This document shows, in pieces, positions 2,721-26,616 of a stretch of DNA of 32,000 nt. Origin of the DNA: Haloferax volcanii DS2 (GTDB lineage: Archaea > Halobacteriota > Halobacteria > Halobacteriales > Haloferacaceae). Below the pieces are notes generated by a model. That model searched no databases. It was not told where the DNA came from and was given only the letters and a program-made list of their open reading frames with translations. The stretch is from positions 870,001 to 902,000 of the forward strand of contig NC_013967.1 in NCBI RefSeq assembly GCF_000025685.1. Direction: 5' to 3'. How positions within the stretch are numbered: position 1 is the stretch's first letter; every line of letters starts with the position of its first letter. The translations under genes were made by a program, and so were the position numbers.

Positions 2721-3692
2721 ATGGACGACCGCGTACACCCCGAGGTCCGGCGCACCGCGACGGAAATCGACACGATGGAGATTCGCGGCGCGGCGACCAT
2801 CGCCGACGCGGCCGCGCGAGCGCTCCGGACGCAGGCCACGGAGAGCGACGCCGCCGACGCCGAGGCGTTCCGGGCCGAGCTCCGCGCGACCGCCCGGACG
2901 CTCCACGAGACGCGGCCGACGGCCGTGAGCCTCCCCAACGCCCTCCGGTACGTCCTCCGCGACATGTCGAGTACGACCGTCGAGGGGCTCCGACAGAGCG
3001 TCGTCGACTCGGCCGACGAGTTCTGCGCCCGGCTCGAACGGGCGCAGGCCGACCTCGGACAGGTCGGCGCGAACCGCCTCCGCGACGGCGACACCATCAT
3101 GACCCACTGCCACTCCACGGACGCGCTGGCGTGCGTCGAGGCGGCCGTCGAGCAGGGAAAGCACATCGAGGCGGTCGTCAAGGAGACGCGGCCTCGAAAT
3201 CAGGGACACATCACCGCGAAGCGACTCCACGAACTGGGCGTGCCCGTCACGCTCATCGTCGACTCGGCGGCCCGCCGCTACCTCAACGACGTGGACCACG
3301 TGCTCGTCGGCGCGGACGCCGTCGCGGCCGACGGGAGCGTCATCAACAAAATCGGGACGAGCGGCCTCGCGGTCAACGCACGCGAGCGGGGGACGCCCAT
3401 CATGGTCGCCGCGCAGACGCTCAAGCTCCACCCGGGGACGATGACCGGTCACACCGTCGATATCGAGATGCGCGACACCGCCGAGGTCGTCGACGACGAC
3501 ACGCTCGCGGACCTCGGGAACCCCACCGTGAAGAACCCCGCGTTCGACGTGACGCCGCCGCGATACGTGGACGCCATCGTCACCGAGCGCGGGCAGTTCC
3601 CGCCGGAGAGCATCGTCATCCTGATGCGAGAACTGTTCGGCGAGGGCACTTCTGAGCCGTGGGCGGAGCCGTCGCCGCGGGCCGAACCGTAG
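2721..3692 (+). CDS. ribose-1,5-bisphosphate isomerase (eIF-2B alpha/beta/delta-like family)
   Basis: 323 aa from ATG 2721. The track ORF start 2367 overlaps deoA and is rejected. eIF-2B-family signature (VLVGADAVAADGSVINKIGTSGLAV). Size and context match the archaeal R15P isomerase next to AMP phosphorylase. Confidence 0.9.
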   Translation: MDDRVHPEVRRTATEIDTMEIRGAATIADAAARALRTQATESDAADAEAFRAELRATARTLHETRPTAVSLPNALRYVLRDMSSTTVEGLRQSVVDSADEFCARLERAQADLGQVGANRLRDGDTIMTHCHSTDALACVEAAVEQGKHIEAVVKETRPRNQGHITAKRLHELGVPVTLIVDSAARRYLNDVDHVLVGADAVAADGSVINKIGTSGLAVNARERGTPIMVAAQTLKLHPGTMTGHTVDIEMRDTAEVVDDDTLADLGNPTVKNPAFDVTPPRYVDAIVTERGQFPPESIVILMRELFGEGTSEPWAEPSPRAEP

Positions 3693-3722: not shown

Positions 3723-4385
3723 TCACGACCGGCCGACGAGGTCGGCCATGACTTTCATCTCCGCCTTTCGCAGGTGTTCCGCCGCGGTGCTCGTCGAGCA
3801 GTCGAGCCGCGCGGCCACGTCGGCGACCGCCCCGGTCCGCGGCTCGCGGTAGTAGCCGCAGTCGACGGCGGCCTCGACGGCCTCGCGCTGGCGGGGCGAC
3901 AGCGACCCGGCGGAGACGCTCCCCGGTCCCGTGCACTCCCGCACCCGCACGACTTCGAGGCCGCGGCCCTCGGGGAGCTGTTCGACCGCCGACTGGAGCG
4001 CCTCGTCGGTCCCGACGAGCGTCATCGAGACCGTTCCGTCGCCGTCGAAGACGACCGGCGGGACGACGATGAGACCGCCCCGCGTGACGGCGGCCGTCTG
4101 CCTCGTTCCCGCCGCGTCGAGCCGCTCGTCGACCACGATGAAAAAGGAGTCGCCGGGGAGCTGGGAGAGTTCGTACGACAGGATGCGCTCCGTCTCCGCG
4201 AGCGCCGCCTCGTAGGCCTCGACGTCGGTCCCGAAGACCTCGAAGACGATGGTGTTCCTGTCGGTCACCGTCGGGTTCCAGTGGTGGAGTTCGGTCCGCT
4301 CGAACGCCTCGTGGTCGACGACGAACTCGTGCATCGGATGCAACTGTTCGTCGTCGGGCGTGAAGCGAAGCCTGACCGATTTCAT
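3723..4385 (-). CDS. HTH_10 (bacterio-opsin-activator-type) helix-turn-helix transcription regulator
   Basis: C-terminal HTH_10 signature (LSPRQREAVEAAVDCGYYREPRTGAVADVAARLDCSTSTAAEHLRKAEMKVMADL). The start is set at ATG 4385 (MKSVRLRFTPDDEQLHPMHEF..., the usual N-terminus of this haloarchaeal family) because TTTTTAT lies 26-32 nt upstream. ATG 4412 and the track start 4610 are alternatives. Confidence 0.85.
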   Translation of the reverse strand: MKSVRLRFTPDDEQLHPMHEFVVDHEAFERTELHHWNPTVTDRNTIVFEVFGTDVEAYEAALAETERILSYELSQLPGDSFFIVVDERLDAAGTRQTAAVTRGGLIVVPPVVFDGDGTVSMTLVGTDEALQSAVEQLPEGRGLEVVRVRECTGPGSVSAGSLSPRQREAVEAAVDCGYYREPRTGAVADVAARLDCSTSTAAEHLRKAEMKVMADLVGRS

Positions 4386-4410
4386 GCCGGCGAATTGATT
4401 CGACTGCGAC

Positions 4411-4417
4411 ATAAAAA
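4411..4417 (-). promoter_or_regulatory. TATA box (TTTTTAT on minus strand) of the HTH_10 gene, possibly bidirectional with orphan nuoCD
   Basis: The only AT-rich element in the 85-nt divergent spacer. Centred 29 nt upstream of ATG 4385. Confidence 0.4.
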
Positions 4418-4470
4418 CCGGCCGCACTCGTGAGGCAGAACGAGGAACCGACGACCGGACGAACGGGCGG

Positions 4471-6177
4471 ATGTCAACCGTCATGTCACTCGAACGCCCG
4501 CAGCAGCCCCCCGAGTCCGACGCCGACCCCGCCGCGCTCGCCGACGACGCCTCCGGTCCCCTCGACGCCGACGCGCTCCGGCGGGCGTTGGGCGACGCCG
4601 TCCTCGCCACCGAGGAGCACGTTCACGCACCCGCGGTGCAGATTCGCCCCGACGCGGTGCAGTCGTCGCTTTCGGCCCTCCGCGACGACCTCGGTCTCGA
4701 CCACCTCTCGTGTGTGACCGCACAGGAGTACGAGGACCGCTACGAGTCCGTCTATCACCTGAAATCGTACGACGACCCGACCCGAGAGGCGAGCGTCGTC
4801 GTCCCGACGCCGCGCTCGGACCCGGTGAGCGAGTCCGCCGCGCCGGTGTTTCGGACGGCCGAGTGGCACGAGCGGGAGGCGTACGACCTCGTCGGTATCC
4901 AGTACGAAAACCACCCGGACCTGCGCCGCATCCTCCTGCCGGAGACGTGGCAAGGTCATCCCCTCGGGCTGGACTACGACCGGACGCGCCCGCAGGTCGT
5001 CCGGTACGACGAGAACGCGAACCCGCTTGCCGAAGACGGCCGCGCCGACACGAACACGATGCTCCTCAACATCGGGCCGCACCACCCGGCGACTCACGGC
5101 GTGATGCATCTGCAAGTCACGCTGGACGGCGAGCAGGTCGCGGACGTGGAGCCCGACATCGGCTACATCCACCGCTGCGAGGAGCAGATGTGTCAGCAGG
5201 GAACCTATCGACATCAGATTATGCCGTACCCCGACCGCTGGGACTGGGGCGGCGGCGGCCTCCTGAACGAGTGGGCGTACGCCCGCACCGCGGAGGCGCT
5301 GGCGGATATCGACGTGCCCGAGTACGCACAGGTGCTTCGGACGCTGGCGGCCGAACTGAGCCGCATCCTCTCGCACATGCTCGCGGTCGGCGCGTACGCC
5401 CTCGACGTCGTCGGCGATTTCACCGCGACGTTCATGTACGCCATGCGGGACCGCGAACTCGTCCAGAACATCCTCGAAGACCTCACGGGCCAGCGGCTGA
5501 TGTTCAACTACTTCCGGCTCGGCGGGGTCGTCTGGGACCTCCCCGAACCCCGCGAGGAGTTCTTCGAGAAGATTCGGACGTTCGTCGACGGCCTCCCCGA
5601 GAAACTGCGGGAGTACCACGACCTCCTGACGGCGAACGAGATTTTGCAGGCCCGCACGGTCGAGACCGGAATCCTCCCGCCGGAGGTGGCCAAGGACTAC
5701 GGCGTGACGGGGCCGGTCGCCCGCGGCTCCGGCATCGACTACGACCTCCGCCGCGACGACCCCTACGGCTACTACGACGAACTCGACTGGTCGGTCGCCG
5801 TCGAGGACGGCTGCGACAACTTCGCGCGCCTGCTCGTCCGCCTCCGCGAGGTCGAGGAGTCGGCCACCATCGTCGCCCAATGTGTCGACCTGCTCGAAGA
5901 CTGGCCCGACGACGACCGGACCATCCAGGCGAACGTCCCGCGCACCCTCAAACCGGACGACGACACCGAGGTCTACCGCGCGGTCGAGGCCGCGAAAGGT
6001 GAGTTGGGTATCTACATCCGCGCCGACGGCACCGACACCCCGGCGCGGTTCAAGATTCGCGGCCCCTCGTTTTCGAATCTCCAGTCGCTCCCCGAGATGG
6101 CCGAAGGCGAGTACATCCCGGACCTCATCGCGGCGCTCGGAAGTCTCGACACGATAATGGGAGAAGTAGACCGGTAG
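4471..6177 (+). CDS. nuoCD: NADH-quinone oxidoreductase subunit C/D fusion, stand-alone paralogue
   Basis: 568 aa, collinear with the operon NuoCD at 20363-22036. NuoC motif (EREAYDLVGIQYENHPDLRRILLPE) and NuoD motifs (NIGPHHPATHGV, GELGIYIRADG, SLDTIMGEVDR). ATG 4483 (MSLERPQQ...) aligns better with the operon copy start (MSLEEQQ...) and is an alternative start. Confidence 0.93.
   Translation: MSTVMSLERPQQPPESDADPAALADDASGPLDADALRRALGDAVLATEEHVHAPAVQIRPDAVQSSLSALRDDLGLDHLSCVTAQEYEDRYESVYHLKSYDDPTREASVVVPTPRSDPVSESAAPVFRTAEWHEREAYDLVGIQYENHPDLRRILLPETWQGHPLGLDYDRTRPQVVRYDENANPLAEDGRADTNTMLLNIGPHHPATHGVMHLQVTLDGEQVADVEPDIGYIHRCEEQMCQQGTYRHQIMPYPDRWDWGGGGLLNEWAYARTAEALADIDVPEYAQVLRTLAAELSRILSHMLAVGAYALDVVGDFTATFMYAMRDRELVQNILEDLTGQRLMFNYFRLGGVVWDLPEPREEFFEKIRTFVDGLPEKLREYHDLLTANEILQARTVETGILPPEVAKDYGVTGPVARGSGIDYDLRRDDPYGYYDELDWSVAVEDGCDNFARLLVRLREVEESATIVAQCVDLLEDWPDDDRTIQANVPRTLKPDDDTEVYRAVEAAKGELGIYIRADGTDTPARFKIRGPSFSNLQSLPEMAEGEYIPDLIAALGSLDTIMGEVDR
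4697..4749 (+). repeat. 53-nt tract identical to 20553-20605 (nuoCD paralogue pair)
   Basis: Base-by-base comparison: tcgaccacctctcgtgtgtgaccgcacaggagtacgaggaccgctacgagtcc occurs in both copies. Confidence 0.95.
5498..5576 (+). repeat. 79-nt tract identical to 21357-21435 (nuoCD paralogue pair)
   Basis: Base-by-base comparison: tgatgttcaactacttccggctcggcggggtcgtctgggacctccccgaaccccgcgaggagttcttcgagaagattcg occurs in both copies. Confidence 0.95.
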
Positions 6178-6216: not shown

Positions 6217-9165
6217 TCAGTCGTCCGAGGGCGAGTCGGGGCCGGTCCCCGACCCGTCGGTGACCGCCCGACTCATCGACTGCGACGGCGCGGCGGGACT
6301 CGTCTCGCCCGGTGCGGCGTCGCCACCGCGGTCGCTTCCGCCGGCGTCGCCGGCGTCGCCGACGTCGAACCGGCCGACGAGGTCCTTGAGCGACTGGGCG
6401 GACTCCGACACCTGTTGGATGTTCCGCGTGACCTCGTTTATCGCGGCCGTCTGTTCTTCGGTCGCCGCCGAGACCGTCGCCGTCTCCGAGGTGGTCTCCT
6501 CGCTCACGCTCGACACGTCGTCGACCATCGAGACGACCTCCTCGGTCGAGACGGCTTGGTTCTCGGTCGCCTGCGAAATCTCTTCGACGCCGTGTTCGGC
6601 CTCTCGAATCGCCCCCGAGATGTGGTCGAACATCTCGATGGCCTCGCCGATGGTCTCGGACCCGCTCTCGACGCTGTCCTGCATGGACTGCATGTCGTCG
6701 ACCGTGTCGTCGGCGCTCTCGCGCACCTCGCCGATTCGGGACTCCACCTCGTCCGTGGCCTCGCTCGCCTCCTTGGCGAGCGCCTTGATTTCGTTGGCGA
6801 CGACGGCGAAGCCCTCGCCGGCCTCGCCCGCACGGGCCGCCTCGATAGAGGCGTTGAGCGCGAGCAGGTCGGTCTGCTCCGCGATGTCGTTGATGAGCTG
6901 GACGATTTCGTTGATTTCGCCCACCTGCTCGCCGAGGGCTTCGACCCGCTCGACCGCCTCGTCGGCCTCGGTCTCGATGGTCGATATCTCGGCTGTCGCC
7001 TCCGCGGCGTGGTCGCGCCCCTCGTCGGCGAGCGACACGGCCTCGTTGGCGGACTGGACGACGCCGTCGGCGGAGGCGGCGACCTCCTCGATGGTCGCCG
7101 AGAGGTCGTTCATCTCGTCGGCGACCGTCTGGAGCCGCTCGGTCTGCTGTTCCGCGCCGTGGGCGATTTCCTCGACCGACCGCGCGGTCTCCTGGCTCGC
7201 GGACTCTATCTCCTTCGCGCTCGACACCGTCTCGTTGCTCACCGCAGCGAACTCGTCGGCGACCGACTGCACCTCGACGAAGCCGTTTTGGAGCTTCTGA
7301 ATCCCGGTGTCGAGGTCGGACATGATGGCTCCGAACTCGCCGGGGAGGTCGGTCCGGAGGTCCTGGTCGAGATTGCCGTCTCCGAGTTCCGTCCCGGCGG
7401 TCCGAAGCTCTGAGACCTGCCGTTGGAGGTTCTCCTGCATGTCGTCGAACGCCTCGACGAGTTCGCCGAGTTCGTCGTCGTTGGCGTCGATGTCCTCGCC
7501 GTCGTCGAACCGCCCGCGGGCGAGCGACTTGGCGCGGTCCCGGAGCGCCTCTATCGGCTCTGAGAAGTGCCGCGCGGCGACGTAGCCGACACCGACGACG
7601 ACCGCGATGATGCCGACGATTAACAGGAGCATGATGTTTCGAGCGGTGTCCGCCCGGTCGTTCATCGCCTGCCCGAGCTGTTCGACCGGGCCCGTCACGT
7701 CGGACTCGGGGACGGTGGCGACGAGTTCGTACTGCCCGTTACCGAAGTTGAGCGGCGCGTAACCGACGAAGTAGCGCGCCGCCTCGCCGTCGTCGCCGGT
7801 CGTCTCGTGGGTGGTCAGGCCGGTCTGGCCGACAAGCGCCGTCGCGTTCTCCGCGATTTCGGACTCGACGGAGCCGAGCGATTCCCGGGAGTCGGTCAAC
7901 AGCGTCCCGCGCTCGCTCACGATAGTCAGGTGGCCGGTCTCACCGACCTGGATGTCGTCGATGAGCGTGTTGAGGAGTTCGAAGTTGAACTGGAGCGTGA
8001 TGGTTCCGGCGAGTTCTCCCCCGCGGTACACCGGCGCGGTGACGTACACGGCGGCGTCGCCGTCGACGGTCGTCACCTCGCTCACCTGGATCTCGCCCTT
8101 CTGAAGCTCTGTCGCGGTCTCGAACCACGCCTCGTCCGCGAACGAGGTGTCGGACACCGACTCGGTGGCGATGCCGTCGCCCGTGCGCGTCGCTTGGACG
8201 ATGCCCTGCCCGTTCTCGTCGGCGAACAGAATCTCGTCGTAGGTGGGGTGTTCCTCGCCGTCGATGGTCACGGCGCGGGTTTCGAGGTAGCTCCGGAACG
8301 AGTCGTTAATCTGGTCGCGCGCGTCGGTGACGGCGGCCGTCTGGAGTTCGTAGTAGTAGACGCTCGGCGCGAGCACCCATTCGAAGTCCTCGTGGTAGGT
8401 GTACGCGACGAACTTCTCTTCGACGGGGTTGCCCTCTTGGGTGGTGTCTTCCCACTCGTACTCGACGATGCCCCAGTCCTCGCCGTTGCGGACGGCGGCG
8501 TTCGACTCGATTTCGGCGGGCACCTGATTGAACGCCGCTATCCCGGCGTCGTCGACCGTGTTAACCCCGTCTTCGAGGCCGTGGTGGACGACGAAATCGA
8601 GGTTCCCGTCGAGGATGAACGCGTAGCCGGTCGACCCGACGTAGCCCGGTCGGAACGCGTCGGAGAGCGTCCCGCTCTGTTGGACGCCGTCTCCGGCGGT
8701 TCCGGCGATTCGAGCCTCGACACGGTCTTTCACCTGCTGTTGTTGCGCCGGCGAGAGGTCCGCCCAGTCCTGCCCGCCGTACTGGTTCGCAAGGACGCTC
8801 TGTTTCGTGGTCTCGACGGTGGCGCGCATCTGGAGCGCCATGTAGCCCAACTGCGCTTGACTCTGTTCTTGGACGAGCTCCATCTCCCCGTCGCGGGCGG
8901 CCTCGTAGTTCTGCACCGGTGCCGAGTCAGCCAGCGCGAGCGCGTCGATTCGGCGGGCGTCGAGGAGGTTTTGTATCTCCTCTTGCCGGGCGGCGACGGT
9001 CTGATTCAGGTCGCCGGTAATCTGTGATTCGAGCGTCGCCTCGCTTTGGTCTTGGGCGTAGTTTCCAATGCTACTCATCCCTTGGACGCCTGCGACGCCG
9101 ACGACTGACACGGGTATCAGCGAGATGGCGAGACAGAGCGCGATGAGTTTCGTTCGTATCTTCAT
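6217..9165 (-). CDS. methyl-accepting chemotaxis protein (halobacterial transducer) with a large extracytoplasmic sensor domain
   Basis: 982 aa. N-terminal TM, ~480-aa ectodomain, second TM ([21 protein letters not shown]), HAMP-like linker, canonical MCP hairpin tip ([32 protein letters not shown]), acidic low-complexity tail. Confidence 0.93.
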
Positions 9166-9447: not shown

Positions 9448-10692
9448 CTACCGCGGCGTCTCCGTCCCCCACTTATCGAGGGCGACGGCGAGCTCGGGCG
9501 TCTCTTCGGCGGCCTCGGTGATAGCGCGCCCCTCGACGTAGGCGTCGATGGCCGACCGGAGCGCGACCGCGCCCGCGCGGGTTCCGTCGGGATGACCGTG
9601 GATGCCGCCGCCGAGCTGGACACAGACGTTCGTCCCCGTGGCGTCGAGCAGGTCGGGGAGCAGACCGGGGTGGAGGCCGCCCGAGGCGACCGGGAGCACG
9701 TCGGTCGCGCCGTGGAGGTCGCCCGCGAGCCACTCGTTGATGCCGACGGTGTCCTCGTTGGCGAGTTTGCCGAGGCCGGCGGTGCCGGTGTGGAGCTGGT
9801 CGACGCCGCAGAGACGACTCACCTGCGCGAGCACCCGCATCGAGACGCCGTGGGCCGGAAGCCGGTCGAAGGCGGCGTGCATGGCGCGGTGGGCGTGGAT
9901 GGCGAGGCCGTGTTTCTCGGTGCGCTCGCGGACGGTCTGGAGGCCCGCCCAGCCCGCGGTGATGATGTCCACCATGACGTACTCGCCGCCCTGCGCGGCC
10001 ACCTCGTCGACCCGGTCGAGCATCGTCTGGGTGTCGGCGGTGACGTTGATGAGGTAGGACTTCTTCTCGCCCGTCTCGTCCTCGGCGTCGTCGCGGAGCG
10101 ACAGCGACTCCGTGAGGCGGTCGGAGAAGGGGTTGAACGCCTGGTCGGTCAGGTTCTCGTCGTCCTTCAGGAGGTCGACGCCGCCGACCCACGCGTCGTA
10201 GCCGACCTGTGCGTGTGCGGCCGTCGAGAGGCCGACTTTCGGCTTGGGCACCGTCGCCGTGATGGGGCGGTCGGTGACGCCGAATATCTCCTCGCGGACC
10301 GACGACCCGTACAGCGGGCCGGGGTACGCCGAGACGACCGACTCGGGCCACTCGCAGTCGAGGAGGCGAATCGTGTCGACCGCCTTCATCCCCATGATGT
10401 TGCCGGCGATGCACGACAGCACCTGCGGCATGTTACCGGGTTCGAACAGCCCGGCGGGGTAGGCGACCCGAATCAGGTCGCCGTCGATGTCGAACGTCGT
10501 CGCGCCCATGTCGGTGAAGTCCGCGCCGGTCTGGAGGGCCGCCCACGTCCCGTTGGAGGACTCCGAGGCCACGCGACTCGCCGCCGCCTCCGTCGACATC
10601 CCCGTCGCGGGGTCGATACGGAAGGTGCAGACGAGGTCCTCGTCGGTCGGTTCGTAGTCGAGGTCGAGGAAGTCTTCGTACGTGATACCCAT
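9448..10692 (-). CDS. rbcL: ribulose-bisphosphate carboxylase, type III (large subunit only)
   Basis: 414 aa. RuBisCO motifs (GGVDLLKDDENL with the carbamylated Lys, HAHRAMHAAF, LHTGTAGLGKL, QLGGGIHGHPDG). No small-subunit gene nearby. Archaeal type III length and N-terminus. Confidence 0.95.
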   Translation of the reverse strand: MGITYEDFLDLDYEPTDEDLVCTFRIDPATGMSTEAAASRVASESSNGTWAALQTGADFTDMGATTFDIDGDLIRVAYPAGLFEPGNMPQVLSCIAGNIMGMKAVDTIRLLDCEWPESVVSAYPGPLYGSSVREEIFGVTDRPITATVPKPKVGLSTAAHAQVGYDAWVGGVDLLKDDENLTDQAFNPFSDRLTESLSLRDDAEDETGEKKSYLINVTADTQTMLDRVDEVAAQGGEYVMVDIITAGWAGLQTVRERTEKHGLAIHAHRAMHAAFDRLPAHGVSMRVLAQVSRLCGVDQLHTGTAGLGKLANEDTVGINEWLAGDLHGATDVLPVASGGLHPGLLPDLLDATGTNVCVQLGGGIHGHPDGTRAGAVALRSAIDAYVEGRAITEAAEETPELAVALDKWGTETPR

Positions 10693-12968: not shown

Positions 12969-13490
12969 TTACGCGTTGGGACCGGACCACCGCTGGAGGG
13001 TCGCGGAACTCGAACCCGCTTCGTCGGTCCAGACGAGGCGGACGGTCGCGCCCGCGAGGTTAACGTCTTGAGCGGGGGTATCAGTACCTATGTCCAGACC
13101 AAATGAGGTGTCGTTGAGTTCGATTGTCTTACCCGCATTCATGGGGTCTGGGATATCTGGTTCGTCGTCCGCAAGAGACGCACTATCACCTGAACCGTTT
13201 TCTGCACCGGTAACCGATACTGAGAGTCGGTCGGCGGCGATCTGCGAACCGCTCTCGTGAGTTATCTTGAGTACGTCTCCCTGCACACCATCACCGCTGC
13301 TCGCACCCGCTGAGTTGTTCTCGTAGTCGAAACTGAAGCTCGCCTGCGGGGCGGTCGCTGTCTGTTCACCCAGTCCCAGCACGAACGTCCCGATGACGGC
13401 CGCGAGGATGACGGTAATCGCGACCATCAGAATCACACCGATGACCGGCGACACCGCGTCGTCGTCTTCGAATAGTTGTTTGAGTTTCAT
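12969..13490 (-). CDS. pilA1: type IV pilin-like protein with class III signal peptide (PilA-type adhesion pilin)
   Basis: N-terminus MKLKQLFEDDDA/VSPVIGVILMVAITVILAAVIGTFVLGLG is the archaeal prepilin motif plus conserved hydrophobic domain. Ser/Gly/Asp/Thr-rich secreted C-terminal part. The symbol comes from remembered Haloferax synteny (pilin next to hel308b) and is unverified. Confidence 0.8.
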   Translation of the reverse strand: MKLKQLFEDDDAVSPVIGVILMVAITVILAAVIGTFVLGLGEQTATAPQASFSFDYENNSAGASSGDGVQGDVLKITHESGSQIAADRLSVSVTGAENGSGDSASLADDEPDIPDPMNAGKTIELNDTSFGLDIGTDTPAQDVNLAGATVRLVWTDEAGSSSATLQRWSGPNA

Positions 13491-19251: not shown

Positions 19252-19668
19252 ATGAGTGATTGGATTGCAATCGGTGCGATGGGGCTGGTCGGTGTCGGCA
19301 TACCGCTCGCGATGATGGCGGTGTCGGCGCTGCTTCGCCCAAGCGTACCGGAACAAGGAAAGAGTGCCACGTACGAGAGTGGTGAGGTGCCGACAGGTAC
19401 GGCGCGCGTCCAGTTTAACATTCAGTACTACATGGTCGCGCTGCTGTTCCTCGTATTCGACATCGAGACCGTCCTAATTTTCCCCTGGACGGTCATCTAC
19501 CGCTCGGCCCTCGAACAGGGCGCGTCGCTAGCGACGATTCTGACGCCGATGCTCGTTTTCATCGGTGTCCTCGTCGTCGGCCTCGTCTGGGCGTGGCGCA
19601 ACGGCGCAGTCAAGTGGGTCAAAAGCCCGCAGGCAAACCGTCGTAAGACAGAGAGGCAAGATGCATGA
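19252..19668 (+). CDS. nuoA: NADH-quinone oxidoreductase subunit A
   Basis: 138 aa, 3 TM. Signature YYMVALLFLVFDIETVLIFPW. First gene of the nuo cluster. Confidence 0.93.
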   Translation: MSDWIAIGAMGLVGVGIPLAMMAVSALLRPSVPEQGKSATYESGEVPTGTARVQFNIQYYMVALLFLVFDIETVLIFPWTVIYRSALEQGASLATILTPMLVFIGVLVVGLVWAWRNGAVKWVKSPQANRRKTERQDA

Positions 19669-20366
19669 GTAGCGAACAGAAGCCATTCGTCACGGACGAC
19701 ACACAGGTACAGACCGAGACTCGCGACGCCCGCATGGCGGGGGCGGACGACCGGTTCAACTCGAAGCTTCGGGAGGCGTTCGGCTCGTCACCGTTCATCC
19801 TCACGAAGTTCGACAAGTTCATGAACTGGGTCCGCGGGTCCTCGATGTTCATGCTGCAGTTCGGTATCGCGTGCTGCAGCATCGAGATGATGCACACCTA
19901 CTCGGTGAAACACGACCTCGACCGCTTTGCGGCCGGGGTCCCGCGTGCGTCGCCGCGGCAGGCCGACGTGATTATCGTGCCGGGGACCATCGTCTCGAAG
20001 TTCGCCCCGCGCATGAAGCGCGTCTACGACCAGATGCCCGAACCGAAGTTCGTCGTCGGCATGGGGTCGTGTACGATTTCCGGCGGCCCGTTCCAGGAGG
20101 GCTACAACGTCATCAAGGGCGCAGAAGAGGTCATTCCGGTGGACATTCACATCCCCGGCTGTCCGCCGCGCCCGGAGGCGCTCATCTACGGTATCGCGAA
20201 GCTGCAAGAGCGCATCGCCAACGGCGAGTCCAGCCCGGTGACGGTCAAGCCGTACGAGCTGGAGCAGTTCGGCGACCTCGAACGCGACGAAATCGTCGAC
20301 AAGCTCGCCGAGGAGATCGACGAAGAGGACCTCGTCATGCGGTACAACTGGGCTGATTCGCCATGA
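19665..20366 (+). CDS. nuoB: NADH-quinone oxidoreductase subunit B
   Basis: 233 aa. N2-cluster cysteines ([30 protein letters not shown]). ATGA overlap with nuoA. Confidence 0.95.
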
Positions 20367-22036
20367 GCCTCGAAGAACAGCAGTCCGACGACCCCGCGGA
20401 ACTCGAATCGGGCGTCAGCCGCGGCGACGAACTCGCAGAGCTGCTCGGCGACCTCGTCGTCGGCCGCGAAGAGCACCTGAACGCGCCCGGCCTCGTCATC
20501 CGTCCCGACGAGGTCCAAGACGCGCTGTTCAAACTCCGCGACGAAGCGGGCTTCGACCACCTCTCGTGTGTGACCGCACAGGAGTACGAGGACCGCTACG
20601 AGTCCATCTACCACCTGACGAAGTTCGACGACCGGACCGACGAGGTCTCGGTCGTCGTGCCCACGTCGAAGGACAACCCGGTCAGTCAGTCCGCCGAGCC
20701 GGTGTTCCGGACGGCCGACTGGCACGAGCGGGAGGCGTACGACCTCGTCGGTATCCAGTACGAGGACCATCCGGACCTGCGTCGCATCCTCCTGCCGGAG
20801 ACGTGGCAGGGTCACCCGCTCGGGCTTGACTACGACCAGGACCGCCCGCAGATTGCGACGCTCCGCGAGCACGCGAACCCGCTCGAAGAGGACCACCGCG
20901 CCGGGGACAGCAACACGATGTACATCAACATCGGTCCCCACCACCCGGCGACCCACGGCGTGCTGCACGTCGAGACGGTCGTCGACGGCGAACAGGTCGT
21001 CGACCTCGAATCCGACATCGGCTACCTCCACCGCTGCGAGGAACAGATGTGTCAACAGGGGACCTACCGGCACCAGATTATGCCGTACCCCGACCGCTGG
21101 GACTACATCTCGTCGGGTCTCCTGAACGAGTGGGCGTACGCCCGCGCCGCCGAGGACCTCGCGGACATCGAGGTGCCCGAGTACGCCCAGATTATCCGCA
21201 CGATGGGTGCGGAACTGTGCCGCATCGCGTCGCACATGATCGCGCTCGGCACGTTCGCGCTGGACGTCTACGGCGACTTCACGGCCATCTTCATGTACGC
21301 CATGCGGGACCGCGAGATCGTCCAGAACATTCTGGAGGACCTCACGGGCCAGCGCATGATGTTCAACTACTTCCGGCTCGGCGGGGTCGTCTGGGACCTC
21401 CCCGAACCCCGCGAGGAGTTCTTCGAGAAGATTCGCGACTTCATGGACGGGCTCCCGCAGGCGCTCGAGGAGTACCACGACATGATTACCTCGAACGAAA
21501 TCCTGCAGGCCCGGACGGTCGGCACGGGCGTCCTGTCGCCGGAAGTCGCAAAGAGCTACGGCGCGACCGGGCCGGTCGCCCGCGGCTCCGGTATCGACTA
21601 CGACCTCCGTCGCGACGACTCCTACGGCTACTACGACGAACTCGAGTGGGACGTCGTCGTCGAGGACGGCTGCGACAACTTCTCGCGCCTGCTCGTGCGC
21701 ATGCGCGAAGTCGAGGAGTCGGCCAAGATCATCCAGCAGTGTGTCGACCTGCTCGAAGACTGGCCCGAAGACGAGCGGAACATCCAGGCGAACGTTCCGC
21801 GCACCCTCAAGCCCGACGAGGACACGGAAATCTACCGCGCCGTCGAGGGCGCGAAGGGCGAACTCGGCATCTACATCCGCGCGGACGGCACGGACAAGCC
21901 GGCTCGCTTCAAGATTCGGAGCCCGTGTTTCTCGAACCTCCAGACGCTCCCCGAGATGTCCGAGGGTGAGTACATTCCGGACATGATTGCCTCGCTCGGC
22001 AGCCTCGACATCGTGCTCGGAGAGGTGGACAGGTGA
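20363..22036 (+). CDS. nuoCD: NADH-quinone oxidoreductase subunit C/D fusion (operon copy)
   Basis: 557 aa. NuoC plus NuoD motifs (EREAYDLVGIQYEDHPDLRRILLPE, NIGPHHPATHGV, DRWDYISSG, SLDIVLGEVDR). ATGA overlap with nuoB. Confidence 0.95.
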   Translation: MSLEEQQSDDPAELESGVSRGDELAELLGDLVVGREEHLNAPGLVIRPDEVQDALFKLRDEAGFDHLSCVTAQEYEDRYESIYHLTKFDDRTDEVSVVVPTSKDNPVSQSAEPVFRTADWHEREAYDLVGIQYEDHPDLRRILLPETWQGHPLGLDYDQDRPQIATLREHANPLEEDHRAGDSNTMYINIGPHHPATHGVLHVETVVDGEQVVDLESDIGYLHRCEEQMCQQGTYRHQIMPYPDRWDYISSGLLNEWAYARAAEDLADIEVPEYAQIIRTMGAELCRIASHMIALGTFALDVYGDFTAIFMYAMRDREIVQNILEDLTGQRMMFNYFRLGGVVWDLPEPREEFFEKIRDFMDGLPQALEEYHDMITSNEILQARTVGTGVLSPEVAKSYGATGPVARGSGIDYDLRRDDSYGYYDELEWDVVVEDGCDNFSRLLVRMREVEESAKIIQQCVDLLEDWPEDERNIQANVPRTLKPDEDTEIYRAVEGAKGELGIYIRADGTDKPARFKIRSPCFSNLQTLPEMSEGEYIPDMIASLGSLDIVLGEVDR

Positions 22037-23085
22037 TGCATCTGCAAGCGGTCCTTCCGGACACGGTCAGCGGCCTCCTCGGTCTCGAAGGCATCCTCGG
22101 GGACGTCGTCGGCGGCCTCGTCGGCGCGTTCCTCGTCGCCAACATCATGCTCATCATGACGGCGTTCGCCGGGCCGTGGGCGAAGCGGAAAATCACGGCC
22201 GCCTTCGCCGACCGCATCGCGGTCAACCGAATCGGTCCGTTCGGTCTCCTGACCATCGTCACGGACGCGGTCCGTCTGCTGTCGAAGGAACTCGTCGTCC
22301 CCGAGGGCGTCGACCGTCCCGCCTGGGACCTCGCGCCGATGGTCATTCCCTTCTCCGCGCTGCTCGGATTCGCCGTCATCCCGATGGGCAACGGCATCCA
22401 GCTCGCGGACCCCGAAACCGGTCTCGCCTTTGCCTTCGCCGCGGCGTCTATCGCCTCGCTCGGCATCGTCATGACCGGCTACGCATCGAACAACAAGTTC
22501 TCGCTCATCGGCGCGCTCCGCGCCGTCGCGGCGAACATCGCTTACGAGATTCCGCTGGTCGTCACGGCGGCCTCGGTCGTTATCTTCGCCGGGTCGCTCC
22601 GCATGAGCGAAATCGTCGCCGTGCAGGCCGAACCGCTGCTTTCGGTCGCCGGCGTGACGATTCCGACGTGGTTCGCGTTCGTGAACCCCTTCGCGTTCGC
22701 GCTGTTCGTCATCGCGAACCTCGCGGAGGTCGGCCGCAACCCGTTCGACATCCCCGAAGCGCCGACCGAGATTGTCGCCGGGTACCAGACCGAGTACTCC
22801 TCGGTCTACTTCGTGCTCATCTACCTCGGTGAGTTCATCCACATCTTCCTCGGCGGCGCTATCGCGGCGACCCTGTTCCTCGGCGGTCCGGCGGGCCCGG
22901 TTCTCCCCGGATTCGTCTGGTTCACAATCAAAATCTGGGCGTTCTTCCTGTTCACCCAGTGGGCGCGCTCCGCAGTGCCGCGCCTTCGCGTCGATCAGTT
23001 CCTCGAAATCGGTTGGAAGGGGATGCTCGTGCTCTCCTTCGCCAACCTGGTTCTCACGGCCATCATCGTGGGGGTGATTGCATGA
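22036..23085 (+). CDS. nuoH: NADH-quinone oxidoreductase subunit H
   Basis: Polytopic. Signature EVGRNPFDIPEAPTEIVAGYQTEYSS. ATG 22036 overlaps the nuoCD stop (TGATG). GTG 22033 is the alternative given by the ORF track. Confidence 0.93.
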   Translation: MHLQAVLPDTVSGLLGLEGILGDVVGGLVGAFLVANIMLIMTAFAGPWAKRKITAAFADRIAVNRIGPFGLLTIVTDAVRLLSKELVVPEGVDRPAWDLAPMVIPFSALLGFAVIPMGNGIQLADPETGLAFAFAAASIASLGIVMTGYASNNKFSLIGALRAVAANIAYEIPLVVTAASVVIFAGSLRMSEIVAVQAEPLLSVAGVTIPTWFAFVNPFAFALFVIANLAEVGRNPFDIPEAPTEIVAGYQTEYSSVYFVLIYLGEFIHIFLGGAIAATLFLGGPAGPVLPGFVWFTIKIWAFFLFTQWARSAVPRLRVDQFLEIGWKGMLVLSFANLVLTAIIVGVIA

Positions 23086-23543
23086 TCGGAATCCTGAAAG
23101 GCATGGCAGTGACGCTGAAGCACGCGCTCGACGGGCAGACGTTCACGGTCGAGTACCCCGAGACCGCGCCCGAAGTGAGCCCGCGTTTCCGCGGCGTCCA
23201 CAAGTTCAGCCAAGAGCGGTGTATCTGGTGTCGCCAGTGTGAGAACGTCTGTCCGAACGACACGATTCAGATCGTTCAGGACGACCAGCGCAACGGCGAG
23301 CAGTACAACCTCCACATCGGCCAGTGTATCTACTGCCGGCTGTGCGAGGAGGTCTGTCCCGTCGACGCCATCCTGCTCACGCAGAACTTCGAGTTCACGG
23401 CGGACACGAAAAACGACTTCGTCTACAACAAAGAACAGCTCAAGAACGTCCCGTGGTACAAGGATATCGACCCGCTCAACTCCCGCAACCCCGACCGCAA
23501 CGCGTGGGTCGGCGAGGGCGAAGGAGAGGTCGACTACCAGTAA
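23082..23543 (+). CDS. nuoI: NADH-quinone oxidoreductase subunit I (2x[4Fe-4S] ferredoxin)
   Basis: 153 aa from ATG 23082 (ATGA overlap with nuoH). Two Cys boxes, CIWCRQCENVCP and CIYCRLCEEVCP. The track start 22959 lies inside nuoH and is rejected. Confidence 0.93.
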   Translation: MIGILKGMAVTLKHALDGQTFTVEYPETAPEVSPRFRGVHKFSQERCIWCRQCENVCPNDTIQIVQDDQRNGEQYNLHIGQCIYCRLCEEVCPVDAILLTQNFEFTADTKNDFVYNKEQLKNVPWYKDIDPLNSRNPDRNAWVGEGEGEVDYQ

Positions 23544-23648
23544 CATGACCGCGAGTGAATCGTTCGAGTCCCGTCAGCCCGCGTCCGCTACCGGACGCTG
23601 AGGACGTTCTCGAAATGTTCAAAGGGATATCTCAAGGAGACACACACA

Positions 23649-23909
23649 ATGGTTTATGAAACCATCGCGTTCGCGCTGTTCGCCCTCGTCACCGTGGGTT
23701 GCAGCCTGGGCGTCGTCCTCGTGCGGGACATCTGGCATTCCGCACTCCTGCTCGGGGGCGCGCTCTTGAGCGTCGCGGTGCATTACGTGATGTTGCAGGC
23801 GGAGTTCCTCGCCGCCATGCAGGTCCTCGTCTACGTCGGCGGGGTCCTGATTCTCATCACGTTCGCCGTGATGCTGACGCGTATCAATCCGGAGGTGAGT
23901 AGTACATGA
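23649..23909 (+). CDS. nuoJ1: NADH-quinone oxidoreductase subunit J, N-terminal part
   Basis: 86 aa, 3 TM (…LQAEFLAAMQVLVYVGGVLILITFAVML). Preceded by the SD-like GGAGACAC at 23636-23643. Confidence 0.85.
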   Translation: MVYETIAFALFALVTVGCSLGVVLVRDIWHSALLLGGALLSVAVHYVMLQAEFLAAMQVLVYVGGVLILITFAVMLTRINPEVSST

Positions 23910-24274
23910 CAACCAAACCGCAGCTGAAACTCGGTTCGCACCTCGTGCCCGGACTCGCTGCCGTCGCGCTGTTCGTCGTGATGGCGGTCGTGTTCCTCGG
24001 CGCGTCGTTCCCGAACCCACAGGGGTTCCCGGAGGGAGCAAACATCACCGCGAGCATCGGCTATTCGATGTTCAACCTCGGGTTCGGAAGCGTCGACGGC
24101 GAGAGCATGCTGGTCGCGTTCGAAATCATCGACCTCGTGCTCGTCGCCGCGCTCGCCGGCGCGGTGCTCCTCGCTCGCCGCGAGGACACCACGGGACAGA
24201 TGCGGACCATCCTGACCGACGGCGGTCGGGAGCTCAAGCAGACGCTGTTCGACGACGAGGAGGGTGACAACTGA
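23906..24274 (+). CDS. nuoJ2: NADH-quinone oxidoreductase subunit J, C-terminal part
   Basis: 122 aa, 2 TM (LVPGLAAVALFVVMAVVFL, FEIIDLVLVAALAGAVLLA). ATGA-coupled to nuoJ1. A split J is usual in haloarchaea as far as I recall. Confidence 0.8.
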   Translation: MTTKPQLKLGSHLVPGLAAVALFVVMAVVFLGASFPNPQGFPEGANITASIGYSMFNLGFGSVDGESMLVAFEIIDLVLVAALAGAVLLARREDTTGQMRTILTDGGRELKQTLFDDEEGDN

Positions 24275-24576
24275 TGGTGCCCGCGCAGTACTACCTCGTT
24301 TTGTCGGCCGCCGTGTTCTGCATCGGCATCTTCGGCCTCTTGACCCGTCGGAACGCGCTGTTGTTCCTGATGTCGGTCGAACTGATGCTGAACGCCGCGA
24401 ACATCAACCTCGTCGCGTTCTCCTACTACTGGGGTAACGTGACGGGCCAGACGTTCGGGCTGTTCACGATGGCGCTCGCCGCCGCCGAGGTGGCGGTCGG
24501 TATCGGCATCATCCTCGTACTGTACCGCAACTTCGACGGCGTGGACGTGACCAACGCGACCACGATGAGGTGGTAA
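24274..24576 (+). CDS. nuoK: NADH-quinone oxidoreductase subunit K
   Basis: 100 aa, 3 TM. Signature LMSVELMLNAANINLVAFS with the conserved Glu. Confidence 0.92.
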   Translation: MVPAQYYLVLSAAVFCIGIFGLLTRRNALLFLMSVELMLNAANINLVAFSYYWGNVTGQTFGLFTMALAAAEVAVGIGIILVLYRNFDGVDVTNATTMRW

Positions 24577-24579
24577 TCT

Positions 24580-26616
24580 ATGGCAGGTATCTTAGACTTC
24601 GCTCCGGCCATCGTCCTCCTCCCGTTCCTCTCGTTCCTGATCGCACTCGGGGCGGGACGGTACATGCCGAAGGGAGGCGCGCTGGCGGGTATCGGCGCGA
24701 CGGCGGGCTCGTTCGTCCTGTCCATCGCGACGTTCTTCGCCGTCAGCGGCGGACAGACCTACAACCAACACATCTACACGTGGGCGACCGGCGCCGGCGA
24801 CGCGGTGACGCTCGACTTCGGCCTACTCATCGACCCGCTTTCGTCGATGATGCTCGTCATCGTGACGCTCGTCGCCGTCCTCGTCCACATCTTCAGCCTC
24901 GGCTACATGAACGACGAGGGCGAGACGGGCCTCCCGCGCTACTACGCCGGGCTCGGCCTGTTCACCGCGTCGATGCTGGCGTTCGTCGTGTCCAGCAACC
25001 TCCTCATGGCGTTCATGTTCTTCGAGCTGGTGGGGCTGTGTTCCTACCTGCTCATCGGCTTCTGGTTCCGCCAGGAGGGCCCGCCGAGCGCCGCGAAGAA
25101 GGCGTTCCTCGTCACCCGCTTCGGTGACTACTTCTTCCTCATCGGCGTCGTCGCGGTGTTCGCGACGTTCGGCTCGGCGGCGTTCGCCGGTCCCGAGGCG
25201 TTCCCGGTCCTCGCCGAGGAGGCGCTCCACGGCGAGCACGCGGTCAACACGTTCCTCGGCATGGGCGAACAGGCGTGGTTCACCGTCGTCGGCCTCCTCG
25301 TTCTCGGGGGCGTCGTCGGCAAGTCCGCGCAGTTCCCCCTGCACACGTGGCTTCCGGACGCGATGGAAGGCCCGACCCCCGTCTCCGCGCTCATTCACGC
25401 GGCGACGATGGTTGCCGCGGGTGTCTACCTCGTCGCCCGGATGTACGGTTTCTACGCGCTGACCCCGACGACGCTCGGTATCATCGCGCTCGTGGGCGGC
25501 TTCACGGCCCTCTTCGCCGCGACGATGGGCGTCGTCAAGAAAGAAATCAAGCAGGTGCTCGCGTACTCGACCATCAGCCAGTACGGCTACATGATGCTCG
25601 GGCTCGGCGTCGGCGGCTACGTCGCCTCGACGTTCCACCTGCTCACGCACGCCTTCTTCAAGGCGCTTCTGTTCCTCGGTGCCGGTGCGGTCATCATCGC
25701 GATGCACCACAACGAGAACATGTGGGACATGGGCGGCCTCAAAGACAAGATGCCCGTGACGTACTACGCGTTCCTCTCGGGCTCGCTCGCGCTCGCCGGC
25801 ATCGTTCCGTTCGCCGGCTTCTGGTCGAAAGACGAGATTCTGTACGAGGCGCTCAACCACGGGCTCGGGACCGACGGCGGTCTCGGAACCGTCTTCCTCG
25901 TCGCGTACGCGATGGGGCTCATCGCCGTGTTCTTCACCGGGTTCTACACCTTCCGGATGGTGTTCCTCACCTTCCACGGCGAACCGCGTAGCGACACCGC
26001 GCGCGACCCGCACGGCTTCGGCTGGAACGTCAAGTTCCCGCTCGCCGTCCTCGGCGTGCTCGCGGCCGTCATCGGCCTCGTCAACATGGCTCCGGTGGAG
26101 GACCTCACGGGGATTCACCTCACGTTCCTCCACGACTGGCTCGACGGCGGCATCTCGTCGCTGACCGCGCACCACTACCTCGAAGTGCTCGAAAGCGGCG
26201 TCGGTGCGGGGCTCCACCCGGCCGGAATCGGCTCTATCGCGCCGGGGCTGGTCTCGCTGGCCCTCGCCCTCGCGGGTGCCGGACTCGCCTACCGCCTGTA
26301 CAACGTCCCCGAGCCCGTCGAACACACGGACAAGCTCGGGAGCATCAAGACCGTACTGTACAACAACTACTACCAGGACGAGTACCAGGTCTGGATTGCG
26401 ACCGGCGTCGTCCAGCCCATCTCTCGCGCCCTCGATAAGTTCGACCAGGGCATCGTCGACGGCGTCGTCAACGGTATCTCCAGCGTGAGCCTGTTCGCTG
26501 GCGGTCGCGTCAAGCGCGTCCAGACCGGTGTGGTGAGCAACTACGCGGCGCTCCTCACGCTCGGTCTGACCGCGCTGCTTCTCGGTCTCGGTCTGCTCGG
26601 AGGTTGGTTCGCATGA
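24580..26616 (+). CDS. nuoL: NADH-quinone oxidoreductase subunit L
   Basis: 678 aa antiporter-like subunit (HTWLPDAMEGPTPVSALIHAATMVAAGVYL) with a C-terminal extension consistent with the lateral helix. Confidence 0.95.
   Translation: MAGILDFAPAIVLLPFLSFLIALGAGRYMPKGGALAGIGATAGSFVLSIATFFAVSGGQTYNQHIYTWATGAGDAVTLDFGLLIDPLSSMMLVIVTLVAVLVHIFSLGYMNDEGETGLPRYYAGLGLFTASMLAFVVSSNLLMAFMFFELVGLCSYLLIGFWFRQEGPPSAAKKAFLVTRFGDYFFLIGVVAVFATFGSAAFAGPEAFPVLAEEALHGEHAVNTFLGMGEQAWFTVVGLLVLGGVVGKSAQFPLHTWLPDAMEGPTPVSALIHAATMVAAGVYLVARMYGFYALTPTTLGIIALVGGFTALFAATMGVVKKEIKQVLAYSTISQYGYMMLGLGVGGYVASTFHLLTHAFFKALLFLGAGAVIIAMHHNENMWDMGGLKDKMPVTYYAFLSGSLALAGIVPFAGFWSKDEILYEALNHGLGTDGGLGTVFLVAYAMGLIAVFFTGFYTFRMVFLTFHGEPRSDTARDPHGFGWNVKFPLAVLGVLAAVIGLVNMAPVEDLTGIHLTFLHDWLDGGISSLTAHHYLEVLESGVGAGLHPAGIGSIAPGLVSLALALAGAGLAYRLYNVPEPVEHTDKLGSIKTVLYNNYYQDEYQVWIATGVVQPISRALDKFDQGIVDGVVNGISSVSLFAGGRVKRVQTGVVSNYAALLTLGLTALLLGLGLLGGWFA

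Follow-up and report, generated by a model that had tools for sequence, protein, structure and literature searches.

The 32,000-nucleotide stretch of the Haloferax volcanii DS2 genome analyzed here (NC_013967.1, positions 870,001 to 902,000; hereinafter the window, within which all positions are counted) encodes two versions of NuoCD, a subunit of the haloarchaeal Nuo complex. One is encoded within the nuo operon, and the other, which we denote the orphan, is not located between nuoB and nuoH but rather 14 kb upstream of the operon, between the genes of a regulator and a transducer. The orphan has Trp at the position of the quinone-ligand Tyr of complex I and belongs to a distinct class of haloarchaeal NuoCD proteins (hereinafter the W class, as opposed to the Y class that includes the operon copy), fixed differences between the two classes being found at twelve positions. 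The features of the two genes are as follows (open reading frames are abbreviated ORFs, and residues of the orphan are numbered from the ATG at 4471):

4483–6177, plus strand: orphan W-type nuoCD, monocistronic (ORF, translation, Pfam, NCBIfam)
5095–5097, plus strand: His209, retained equivalent of Thermus Nqo4 His38 and mouse NDUFS2 His59; His in all 81 haloarchaeal sequences
5167–5169, plus strand: Ile233, which is Leu in the Y class and precedes Arg235 by two residues
5245–5247, plus strand: Trp259, by alignment at the position of Nqo4 Tyr87, NDUFS2 Tyr108 and Yarrowia Tyr144
5248–5259, plus strand: (GGC)4 encoding Gly260–263, within the class signature W-[G/S/C/N]-G-[G/A]-G
5359–5370, plus strand: Ser297 and Leu300 (Cys and Ala, respectively, in the Y class), in the helix leading into the Asp312 turn
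5392–5406, plus strand: Ala308-Tyr309-Ala-Leu-Asp312; Asp312, equivalent to Nqo4 Asp139 and NDUFS2 Asp160, is kept, and position 308 corresponds to Thr156
6061–6069, plus strand: Gly531 and Ser533 (Ser and Cys, respectively, in the Y class), in the motif R-x-P-x-F-S-N-L; both 35/35 vs 46/46
6148–6159, plus strand: Asp560-Thr561-Ile562-Met563, equivalent to NDUFS2 Asp422, Val424 (Ile562) and Phe425 (Met563); D-I-V-L in the Y class
19252–29663, plus strand: nuo operon (nuoA, B, CD, H, I ... L, M, N), ORFs with high third-position G+C; Pfam matches to NuoA, B, H and I
20363–22036, plus strand: operon Y-type nuoCD (ORF, translation), with Tyr248-Ile-Ser-Ser-Gly at 21104–21118

The orphan ORF opens with the ATG at 4471; because the ATG at 4483 is conserved in the alignment of six Haloferax species and that at 4471 is not, translation probably starts at 4483 (MSLE..., as in the operon copy), yielding a protein of 564 amino acids in which Trp259 is Trp255. 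Both NuoCD ORFs are full length, each with the Complex1_30kDa and Complex1_49kDa domains, and the two proteins are 76% identical over the whole length. In the orphan, these domains (PF00329, E = 1.9e-35, followed by PF00346, E = 2.3e-81) are contained in one polypeptide that passes the NCBIfam NuoD equivalog profile NF004739 (374.7 bits, cut-off 360) and falls below the cut-off of the FpoD family NF040602 (306.9 bits vs 600), which none of the ten family representatives scored for FpoD reached. The CxxC ligands of group 4 [NiFe]-hydrogenases are absent (the matching segments, HHPATHGV and SLDTIMGEVDR, contain no Cys), and MbhL and HycE are only distant matches (E = 5e-40 to 6e-43). The third-position G+C of the orphan gene is 0.89, in a window with an overall G+C of 66.8%, and the protein is 95–96% identical to proteins of H. 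marisrubri, H. prahovense, H. gibbonsii and H. chudinovii. Judging from the gene order, with HVO_0979 being nuoB (PMC8305020) and HVO_0969 named in an archaeal-taxis review, the locus tag of the orphan is likely to be HVO_0968.

At the putative quinone ligand, the orphan reads DRWD-W-GGGG-LLNEW (codons 258–263, gac tgg ggc ggc ggc ggc, at 5242–5259, with gac at 5242–5244 and the following ctc at 5260–5262), as compared to DRWD-Y-ISSG-LLNEW in the operon copy (gac tac atc tcg tcg ggt at 21101–21118); the coordinates, codons and residues given for both copies in the initial annotation of this stretch are exact. The operon copy shares with the orphan the length, the domain order and the identical flanking DRWD and LLNEW but differs from it in the twelve signature columns; the Y type is, moreover, always found in the operon, under somewhat stronger purifying selection. 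The longest exact run between the two copies (79 nucleotides, ~5497–5575, in the FNYFRLGGVVWDLPEPREEFFEKIR region) may be either a short conversion tract or the result of strong constraint.

Class-specific positions around the quinone ligand

In every current model of quinone reduction by complex I, its protonation and the start of proton pumping, the pair of Tyr and His residues at the top of the quinone tunnel plays the central part. Using HMMER, the orphan was aligned with solved structures of the family, and equivalent residues were derived by arithmetic from the matched ranges rather than by structural superposition. In every solved homolog printed in these alignments, Trp259 is opposite the conserved Tyr of DR(I/M/W)(E/D)Y, the PDRWDW segment being matched with TDRIEY in Escherichia coli NuoCD, TDRMDY in Aquifex NuoCD2 and TRWDY in chloroplast and cyanobacterial NdhH; conservation is high in the blocks on both sides of the Trp, and each side has one gap of a single residue. 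For Thermus Nqo4 (2fug_4; query residues 1–163 matched to chain residues 26–184), the His of PATHGV is residue 38, and the Trp is residue 87 if the single upstream gap is placed as in the printed alignments. The mapping to mouse NDUFS2 (6g2j_D) pairs His209 with His59, Trp259 with Tyr108, Ala308 with Thr156 and Asp312 with Asp160, and that to the Yarrowia subunit (6gcs_C; 177–568 matched to 63–466) pairs Asp560 with D458 and Ile562 with V460, the counterpart of mouse Val424. By the numbering arithmetic, Arg235 is the probable equivalent of NDUFS2 Arg85, which adjoins cluster N2. Thus, the placement of the Trp at the Nqo4 Tyr87 position, with His38 retained, as proposed in the initial annotation, is borne out by the alignments to solved subunits. 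In its general make-up, the orphan resembles canonical NuoD/Nqo4/NDUFS2 (fused to NuoC as in E. coli and Aquifex), with the same two Pfam domains, a full-length alignment at 40–45% identity, and His38, Asp139, Asp107 and the C-terminal GEVDR all kept; it differs from the canonical subunit in having Trp for Tyr together with eleven more class-fixed changes, and in being encoded outside the operon, next to its own regulator.

A column was considered class-specific if it was at least 80% fixed in each class, with at most 10% crossover, in a comparison of 35 W and 46 Y haloarchaeal sequences. Twelve columns, each 83–100% fixed in both classes, separate the two classes; all of them belong to the NuoD half of the protein and none to the NuoC half:

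Position 233: Ile in the W class, Leu in the Y class
Position 259: Trp in the W class (35/35), Tyr in the Y class (46/46)
Position 260: Gly in the W class, Ile in the Y class
Position 261: Gly in the W class, Ser in the Y class
Position 297: Ser in the W class (34/35), Cys in the Y class (44/46)
Position 300: Leu in the W class, Ala in the Y class
Position 309: Tyr in the W class, Phe in the Y class
Position 531: Gly in the W class (35/35), Ser in the Y class (46/46)
Position 533: Ser in the W class (35/35), Cys in the Y class (46/46)
Position 561: Thr in the W class, Ile in the Y class
Position 562: Ile in the W class, Val in the Y class
Position 563: Met in the W class, Leu in the Y class

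Nine of the W-class residues (I233, W259, G261, L300, Y309, G531, S533, I562 and M563) are present in all 35 W genes and in the window gene. Additionally, position 308 is occupied by Thr in all 46 Y genes and by Ala in 29 of the 35 W genes, and both Gly261 and Gly263 are invariant across the W class. By comparison, His209, Asp258 (Asp107), Asp312 (Asp139) and Asp560 are invariant in both classes (81 sequences).

In the piericidin-bound structure of complex I from mouse, the inhibitor headgroup is surrounded by His59, Tyr108, Asp160, Thr156, Met152, Val424, Phe425, Asp107 and Asp422, with the binding energy dominated by Tyr108, His59, Asp160, Val424 and Phe425 (PMC7567858). Six of the twelve class-specific columns are located no more than one residue away from these nine headgroup positions, with ~0.5 expected (hypergeometric P = 2e-6). 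This enrichment supports the prediction that the quinone pocket of the W class was remodeled as a set rather than at a single residue, which agrees with, and extends, the remodeled pocket suggested in the initial annotation. In the W class, the hydroxyl of Tyr87 is lost and a Tyr is gained three residues before the Asp139 equivalent, in the same helix and adjoining the Thr156 equivalent. The Gly-Gly pair following the Trp is what would be expected if an indole in place of a phenol requires room or backbone freedom.

Two cysteines of the Y class, Cys286 (21218–21220) and Cys522 (21926–21928) of the operon copy, correspond to Ser297 (5359–5361) and Ser533 (6067–6069) of the orphan, and this paired loss might reflect spatial proximity or redox sensitivity of the two residues. 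Most of the haloarchaeal NuoCD proteins of both classes also contain a one-residue insertion directly after the Tyr or Trp (5248–5250 and 21107–21109 in the window), at a column with a gap in 111 of the 114 Tyr-type family representatives described below; some of the Y types from Haloarculaceae (DRWDYTANL) lack this insertion as well.

Distribution, history and selection of the two classes

The 120 database proteins closest to the orphan span many genera of Haloferacaceae, Haloarculaceae and their relatives, and include 93 with DRWD-W-[G/S/C/A/N]-G-[G/A]-G and 27 with DRWD-Y-I-S-A-G. We further surveyed 80 haloarchaeal loci (L numbers below), with one genome per species, and classified them by the motif and by tblastn searches with the neighboring genes of the window. 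All 46 Y genes of this survey are located within nuoA-nuoB-nuoCD-nuoH-nuoI. The W class consists of 35 genes (a hybrid gene, L079, is left out of this count), 29 of which are orphans; five are inside the operon, namely those of four Halorientalis (L009, L011, L012 and L013) and of a Haloferacaceae metagenome-assembled genome (MAG; L049), all between nuoB and nuoH and with the complete W signature. Genes of both types are present together in H. marisrubri (L001/L014), H. denitrificans (L003/L018), Halogranum rubrum (L022/L039), Halobaculum sp. D14 (L017/L033) and Halorubrum sp. Atlit-26R (L026/L071). Accordingly, the possibility raised in the initial annotation, that W-GGGG is shared by orphan nuoCD genes of haloarchaea and absent from operon copies, holds in its first part, a Trp followed by a Gly-rich segment being common to orphans in many genera, but fails in the second: W-GG(A/G)G is encoded in the operon in four Halorientalis loci, one MAG and one Halorubrum strain.

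Within Halorientalis, W proteins were detected in H. pallida (two strains), H. halophila, H. regularis, H. persicus, Halorientalis sp. IM1011 and one further Halorientalis sp. Two lists were compared, comprising the 120 nearest relatives of a Haloarculaceae Y type and those of the Halorientalis brevis Y type, respectively, and neither includes a Y protein from any of these W-bearing organisms. Conversely, H. brevis, H. litorea and H. salina are represented by Y proteins in these top-120 lists and are missing, as W bearers, from the search started with the orphan. This complementary pattern suggests a single nuoCD gene, of either class, in each Halorientalis genome.

Outside the haloarchaea, we examined 150 family representatives obtained by clustering at 50% identity. 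The Tyr87 column contains Tyr in 114 of these, Phe in six, and Trp, with His38 retained, in nine besides the query (P0243, P0249, P0273, P0290, P0343, P0375 and P0378 among them); the Trp group includes NuoCD proteins of a Methanonatronarchaeales MAG and of a Methanofastidiosia MAG, and a metagenomic cluster of 91 members. A general coupling between Trp87 and Tyr at position 309 was considered and rejected: Tyr309 is present in 4 of the 9 Trp representatives vs 16 of the 114 Tyr representatives, which is too weak an association, involving only about two independent lineages.

In a neighbor-joining tree rooted with nine non-haloarchaeal NuoD/NuoCD representatives, the haloarchaeal NuoCD proteins are monophyletic (100% bootstrap) and form two clades, Y (65%) and W (50%), with the operon-located W genes nested within the latter. 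This split at the base of haloarchaeal NuoCD points to an old duplication, at or near the base of Halobacteria. Because the nearest outgroup in the tree, the Methanonatronarchaeales NuoCD, has Trp, the W pocket might be the ancestral archaeal state, with the Tyr pocket derived.

The hybrid gene is the operon copy of Halorubrum sp. 48-1-W (L079, 7001–8665), which belongs to the Y clade and yet contains the W-GGGG motif. At ten of thirteen positions (the twelve signature columns and 308) it has the Y-class residues. The motif is spelled by the same codons, TGG GGC GGT GGG GGC, as in the orphan of that genome (L040, 7001–8614), and a sliding-window comparison revealed two tracts, at alignment columns ~631–810 and 1141–1500, that are 97–100% identical to L040, compared with 80–92% identity to other Halorubrum operon genes. 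The synonymous divergence (dS) between L079 and L040 is 0.23, as against 0.43–0.66 between the two copies in other genomes. Thus, L079 looks like the product of gene conversion from the orphan into the operon gene, the alternative being an assembly chimera in a short-read draft. Across genomes, the dS of same-genome paralogs (0.43–0.52) is modestly below that of cross-genus paralogs (0.60–0.81). Conversion as the force shaping the flanks of the motif in the window was rejected given that the third-position identity around the motif in the two window copies is no higher than the gene average; the dS difference is suggestive, not conclusive.

The ratio of nonsynonymous to synonymous divergence (dN/dS, median of pairwise Nei-Gojobori estimates) is 0.13 for the orphan W genes of Halorubrum and 0.14 for those of Haloferax, compared to 0.07 for the operon W genes of Halorientalis and 0.07–0.10 for the Y genes. 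Because of these values of 0.13–0.14, the orphan W class is considered to be under clear purifying selection, slightly relaxed relative to the operon genes. An inactive subunit or a role outside complex I, both contemplated in the initial annotation, are disfavored because W genes are operon-encoded in some lineages and dN/dS is in the range of 0.07–0.14. The perfect triplet repeat is unremarkable and explained by codon bias: GGC accounts for 443 of the 689 Gly codons (64%) in 15 genes of the window, so that four Gly codons would all be GGC with p ~0.17. The orthologs spell this segment in various ways, such as GGC GGT GGG GGC, GGC GGC GCC GGC and AGC GGT GCG GGC, and no variation in the length of the Gly segment was found among the 35 W sequences. 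On account of the codon bias, the mixed synonymous codons and the constant length, the slippage site, or contingency locus, that had been suspected in (GGC)4 was rejected.

Neighborhood of the orphan gene

The orphan is flanked by the following features, most of them specific to Haloferax:

1193–2671: AMP phosphorylase, part of the Haloferax AMP-salvage block
Ending at 3692: ribose-1,5-bisphosphate isomerase, IF-2B-type, part of the Haloferax AMP-salvage block
3723–4385, minus strand: divergent regulator of 220 amino acids with HVO_0513_N and HTH_10 domains (Pfam, translation)
4386–4482: intergenic region of 97 bp, with an AT-rich ATAAAAA box at 4411–4417 and an invariant GTGAGGCAGAACG block at ~4430–4442
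6217–9165, minus strand: convergent Cache/HAMP/MCP transducer of 982 amino acids, downstream of the orphan (Pfam)
9448–10692: type III RuBisCO, part of the Haloferax AMP-salvage block

The HTH_10 gene is the only neighbor of the orphan that is conserved across genera. In tblastn searches, it was detected at 25 of the 29 orphan W loci, in the divergent orientation in 24 and co-directional in one (L020), where the HVO_0513_N and HTH_10 domains of the neighbor were confirmed by Pfam; Pfam did not detect it among the neighbors of the orphan loci L010, L050 and L057, and these searches leave L004 unassigned. The overall count, put at 26 of 29, is thus documented for 25 loci. The operon-located W genes of the survey have no such neighbor. 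Within the intergenic region, the ATAAAAA box and the GTGAGGCAGAACG block persist in six Haloferax species despite diverged flanks and may represent a promoter or operator, and the HTH_10 protein is the predicted regulator of the orphan W gene. No obvious sensor Cys cluster, of the kind present in oxygen-responsive HTH_10 regulators, was seen in the 220-aa translation of the window regulator. In a silver-stress transcriptome, a lone 'nuoCD' was induced without the other nuo genes, but which of the two copies this was could not be told (PMC10694973), and a literature search for haloarchaeal nuoCD paralogs, HVO_0967, HVO_0968 and HVO_0513 yielded nothing relevant.

The regulator, the orphan nuoCD and the transducer split the AMP-salvage genes, an arrangement common to seven Haloferax loci and found in none of the other genera. 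A functional link of the orphan with AMP phosphorylase, ribose-1,5-bisphosphate isomerase and RuBisCO was therefore rejected, the neighborhood being confined to Haloferax. Scans of the window for tRNA genes and Rfam families produced no matches. Further downstream, an ORF on the minus strand (12969–13490) encodes an archaeal type IV pilin N-terminal domain; its third-position G+C is 0.66, compared with ~0.9 in the neighboring genes, and it may be foreign or weakly expressed.

A candidate alternative quinone-site isoform

As the best explanation of the W class, with its signature, the selection acting on it, its linkage to the regulator and its occupancy of the operon in some lineages, we favor, on balance, the view that the orphan is a functional, separately regulated NuoCD isoform with an alternative quinone site in the haloarchaeal Nuo complex. 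Such an isoform would belong to the 11-subunit haloarchaeal Nuo, a complex I-like assembly without NuoEFG that uses menaquinone as the acceptor. Transcription of the isoform would be driven by a promoter of its own, controlled by the neighboring HTH_10 protein, and the isoform would assemble with NuoB, NuoH and NuoI, replacing the Y isoform, with the nuo operon as the predicted source of these partner subunits. The headgroup pocket would be rebuilt by the replacement of Tyr87 with Trp, of the next two residues with Gly-Gly and, in most cases, of the Thr156 equivalent with Ala, followed by Tyr in place of Phe, and by the change of the C-terminal D-I-V-L to D-T-I-M, with His38, Asp139 and the rest of the protein kept. 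In the resulting complex, the chemistry of binding and protonation would be changed for quinone, or for inhibitors resembling it. Trp can form a hydrogen bond but is unable to donate a proton, so that water or, possibly, the new Tyr309 would supply the second one. A more specific scenario, which we put forward tentatively, is that of a switchable quinone site, where the regulated swap of isoforms would move the proton-donating hydroxyl from Tyr87 to the new Tyr, one helical turn before Asp139, and so change the acceptor or confer insensitivity to quinone-analogue toxins. Because haloarchaeal Nuo lacks NuoEFG and its electron donor is unresolved (PMC8305020), one could further speculate that the isoform affects the balance of forward and reverse electron flow.

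There are precedents for replacement of this Tyr. Streptomyces mobaraensis is a bacterium that uses menaquinone. Its complex I, in an organism that produces piericidin, naturally contains Trp in place of Tyr108, as remarked in PMC7567858; the comparison covers the Trp position, and shared descent with the haloarchaeal W class is not implied. It follows from this case that a living cell can rely on a Trp enzyme. In the Yarrowia 49-kDa subunit, the same residue was replaced in the laboratory: the Tyr144 variants assemble but lose reduction of the Q9 quinone, and turn over the short-chain quinones Q1 and Q2 with near-normal maximal rates at a raised Michaelis constant, and with altered half-inhibitory concentrations of inhibitors (PMC7567858). 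These are single substitutions in an otherwise unchanged pocket, unlike the W class, where the Trp is accompanied by co-evolved changes at other sites, among them Tyr for Phe at 309 and Ile for Val at 562.

Several points weigh against the proposed isoform. The production of the W protein and its entry into the complex are deduced from sequence. The membership of the changed residues in the pocket comes from sequence mapping to published contact residues, the AlphaFold2 model of the orphan, built with a 35-sequence haloarchaeal alignment, being too poor for this purpose (mean predicted local distance difference test score 54.6, predicted template modeling score 0.44, with the pocket regions below 50 on the former). 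Every Tyr substitution in Yarrowia abolishes reduction of the native long-chain quinone, so that, by analogy, a Trp enzyme need not be fully active. The modest bootstrap values (65% and 50%) for the reciprocal monophyly of the two classes leave the exact order of events open, and the apparent sole-copy status of the W gene in Halorientalis is indirect, being derived from top-120 lists rather than from a whole-genome search.

An attractive alternative is an inhibitor-insensitive spare subunit that, induced via the regulator, would mainly serve to maintain Nuo function when a quinone-analogue toxin, produced by competitors or by the organism itself, is present, with the Trp removing the hydrogen bond the toxin exploits. 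The presence of Trp in the piericidin producer S. mobaraensis is in line with this possibility, as is the location of the W-class changes at Tyr108, at the residue after Thr156 and at residues 423–425, considering that Tyr108, Val424 and Phe425 contribute most to the piericidin binding energy and that mutations at the Val424 position alter piericidin sensitivity in Rhodobacter (PMC7567858); a dedicated regulator would likewise suit an inducible resistance gene. However, no such toxin is known from hypersaline communities (no search for one was made), biosynthetic or efflux genes are not consistently linked to the W gene, and the W form of Halorientalis is apparently a constitutive operon copy. 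Inhibitor resistance thus appears unlikely as the whole explanation and is better viewed as a special case of the alternative isoform than as a contradiction to it. We consider it quite unlikely that the W protein is an inactive or regulatory decoy that assembles, cannot reduce quinone and, when induced, brakes Nuo activity. The description of the quinone-ligand Tyr as 'strictly conserved' and as the proton donor in a 2021 review (PMC8119997), the loss of Q9 reduction in all Yarrowia Tyr144 variants (PMC7567858) and the separate regulator of the orphan gene would all fit a decoy; against it, W genes hold the operon, apparently alone, in Halorientalis, with dN/dS of 0.07, the remaining positions of the pocket, instead of decaying, have become fixed for new residues by co-evolution, one of them a gained Tyr, His38, Asp139 and Asp107 are invariant, and S. 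mobaraensis lives with Trp.

Very unlikely, in our assessment, is a role outside Nuo, in which the orphan would partner another electron-input or membrane module, or act as a soluble redox or sensor protein. The location of the W gene, mostly away from the operon and with its own regulator, and the unsettled electron donor of haloarchaeal Nuo (PMC8305020) leave room for such a role, but no partner gene is conserved alongside the orphan loci, the protein is 76% identical to the operon copy at full length, without class-specific changes in the NuoC half, and in some lineages the W class is found within the operon, with apparent conversion between the copies in one genome. Both the decoy and the extra-complex role are made less likely by the occupancy of the operon, the selection, the retention of the other key residues and the conversion between copies. 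Finally, a neutral duplicate in which W-GGGG arose by drift, or a slippage-prone repeat that switches the function of the gene, would account for the perfect 12-nucleotide triplet repeat of (GGC)4 but is extremely improbable given that GGC is the dominant Gly codon (64%), that the orthologs use GGT, GGG, GGA and GCN with constant length in 35 sequences, and that the class, which is under purifying selection, has been conserved in many different genera.

Already known are the fold, the family and a natural replacement of Tyr by Trp at this position; what is new is the conserved, co-adapted W class, with its dedicated regulator, its occupancy of the operon in some lineages and the gain of Tyr309. 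The W clade represents a natural experiment that asks if the proton-donating Tyr is required and what could take its place. If the switchable-site scenario is true, it would be a natural, genetically tractable case in which complex I can do without its 'essential' Tyr given a co-adapted pocket. With the good genetics of Haloferax and both isoforms encoded 14 kb apart, swap and deletion tests are practical. The annotation of paralogs in genomes as 'NADH-quinone oxidoreductase subunit D' does not distinguish between what would be two functionally different classes, and their distinction bears on the role of haloarchaeal Nuo, which is still to be resolved for this complex without the NADH module.

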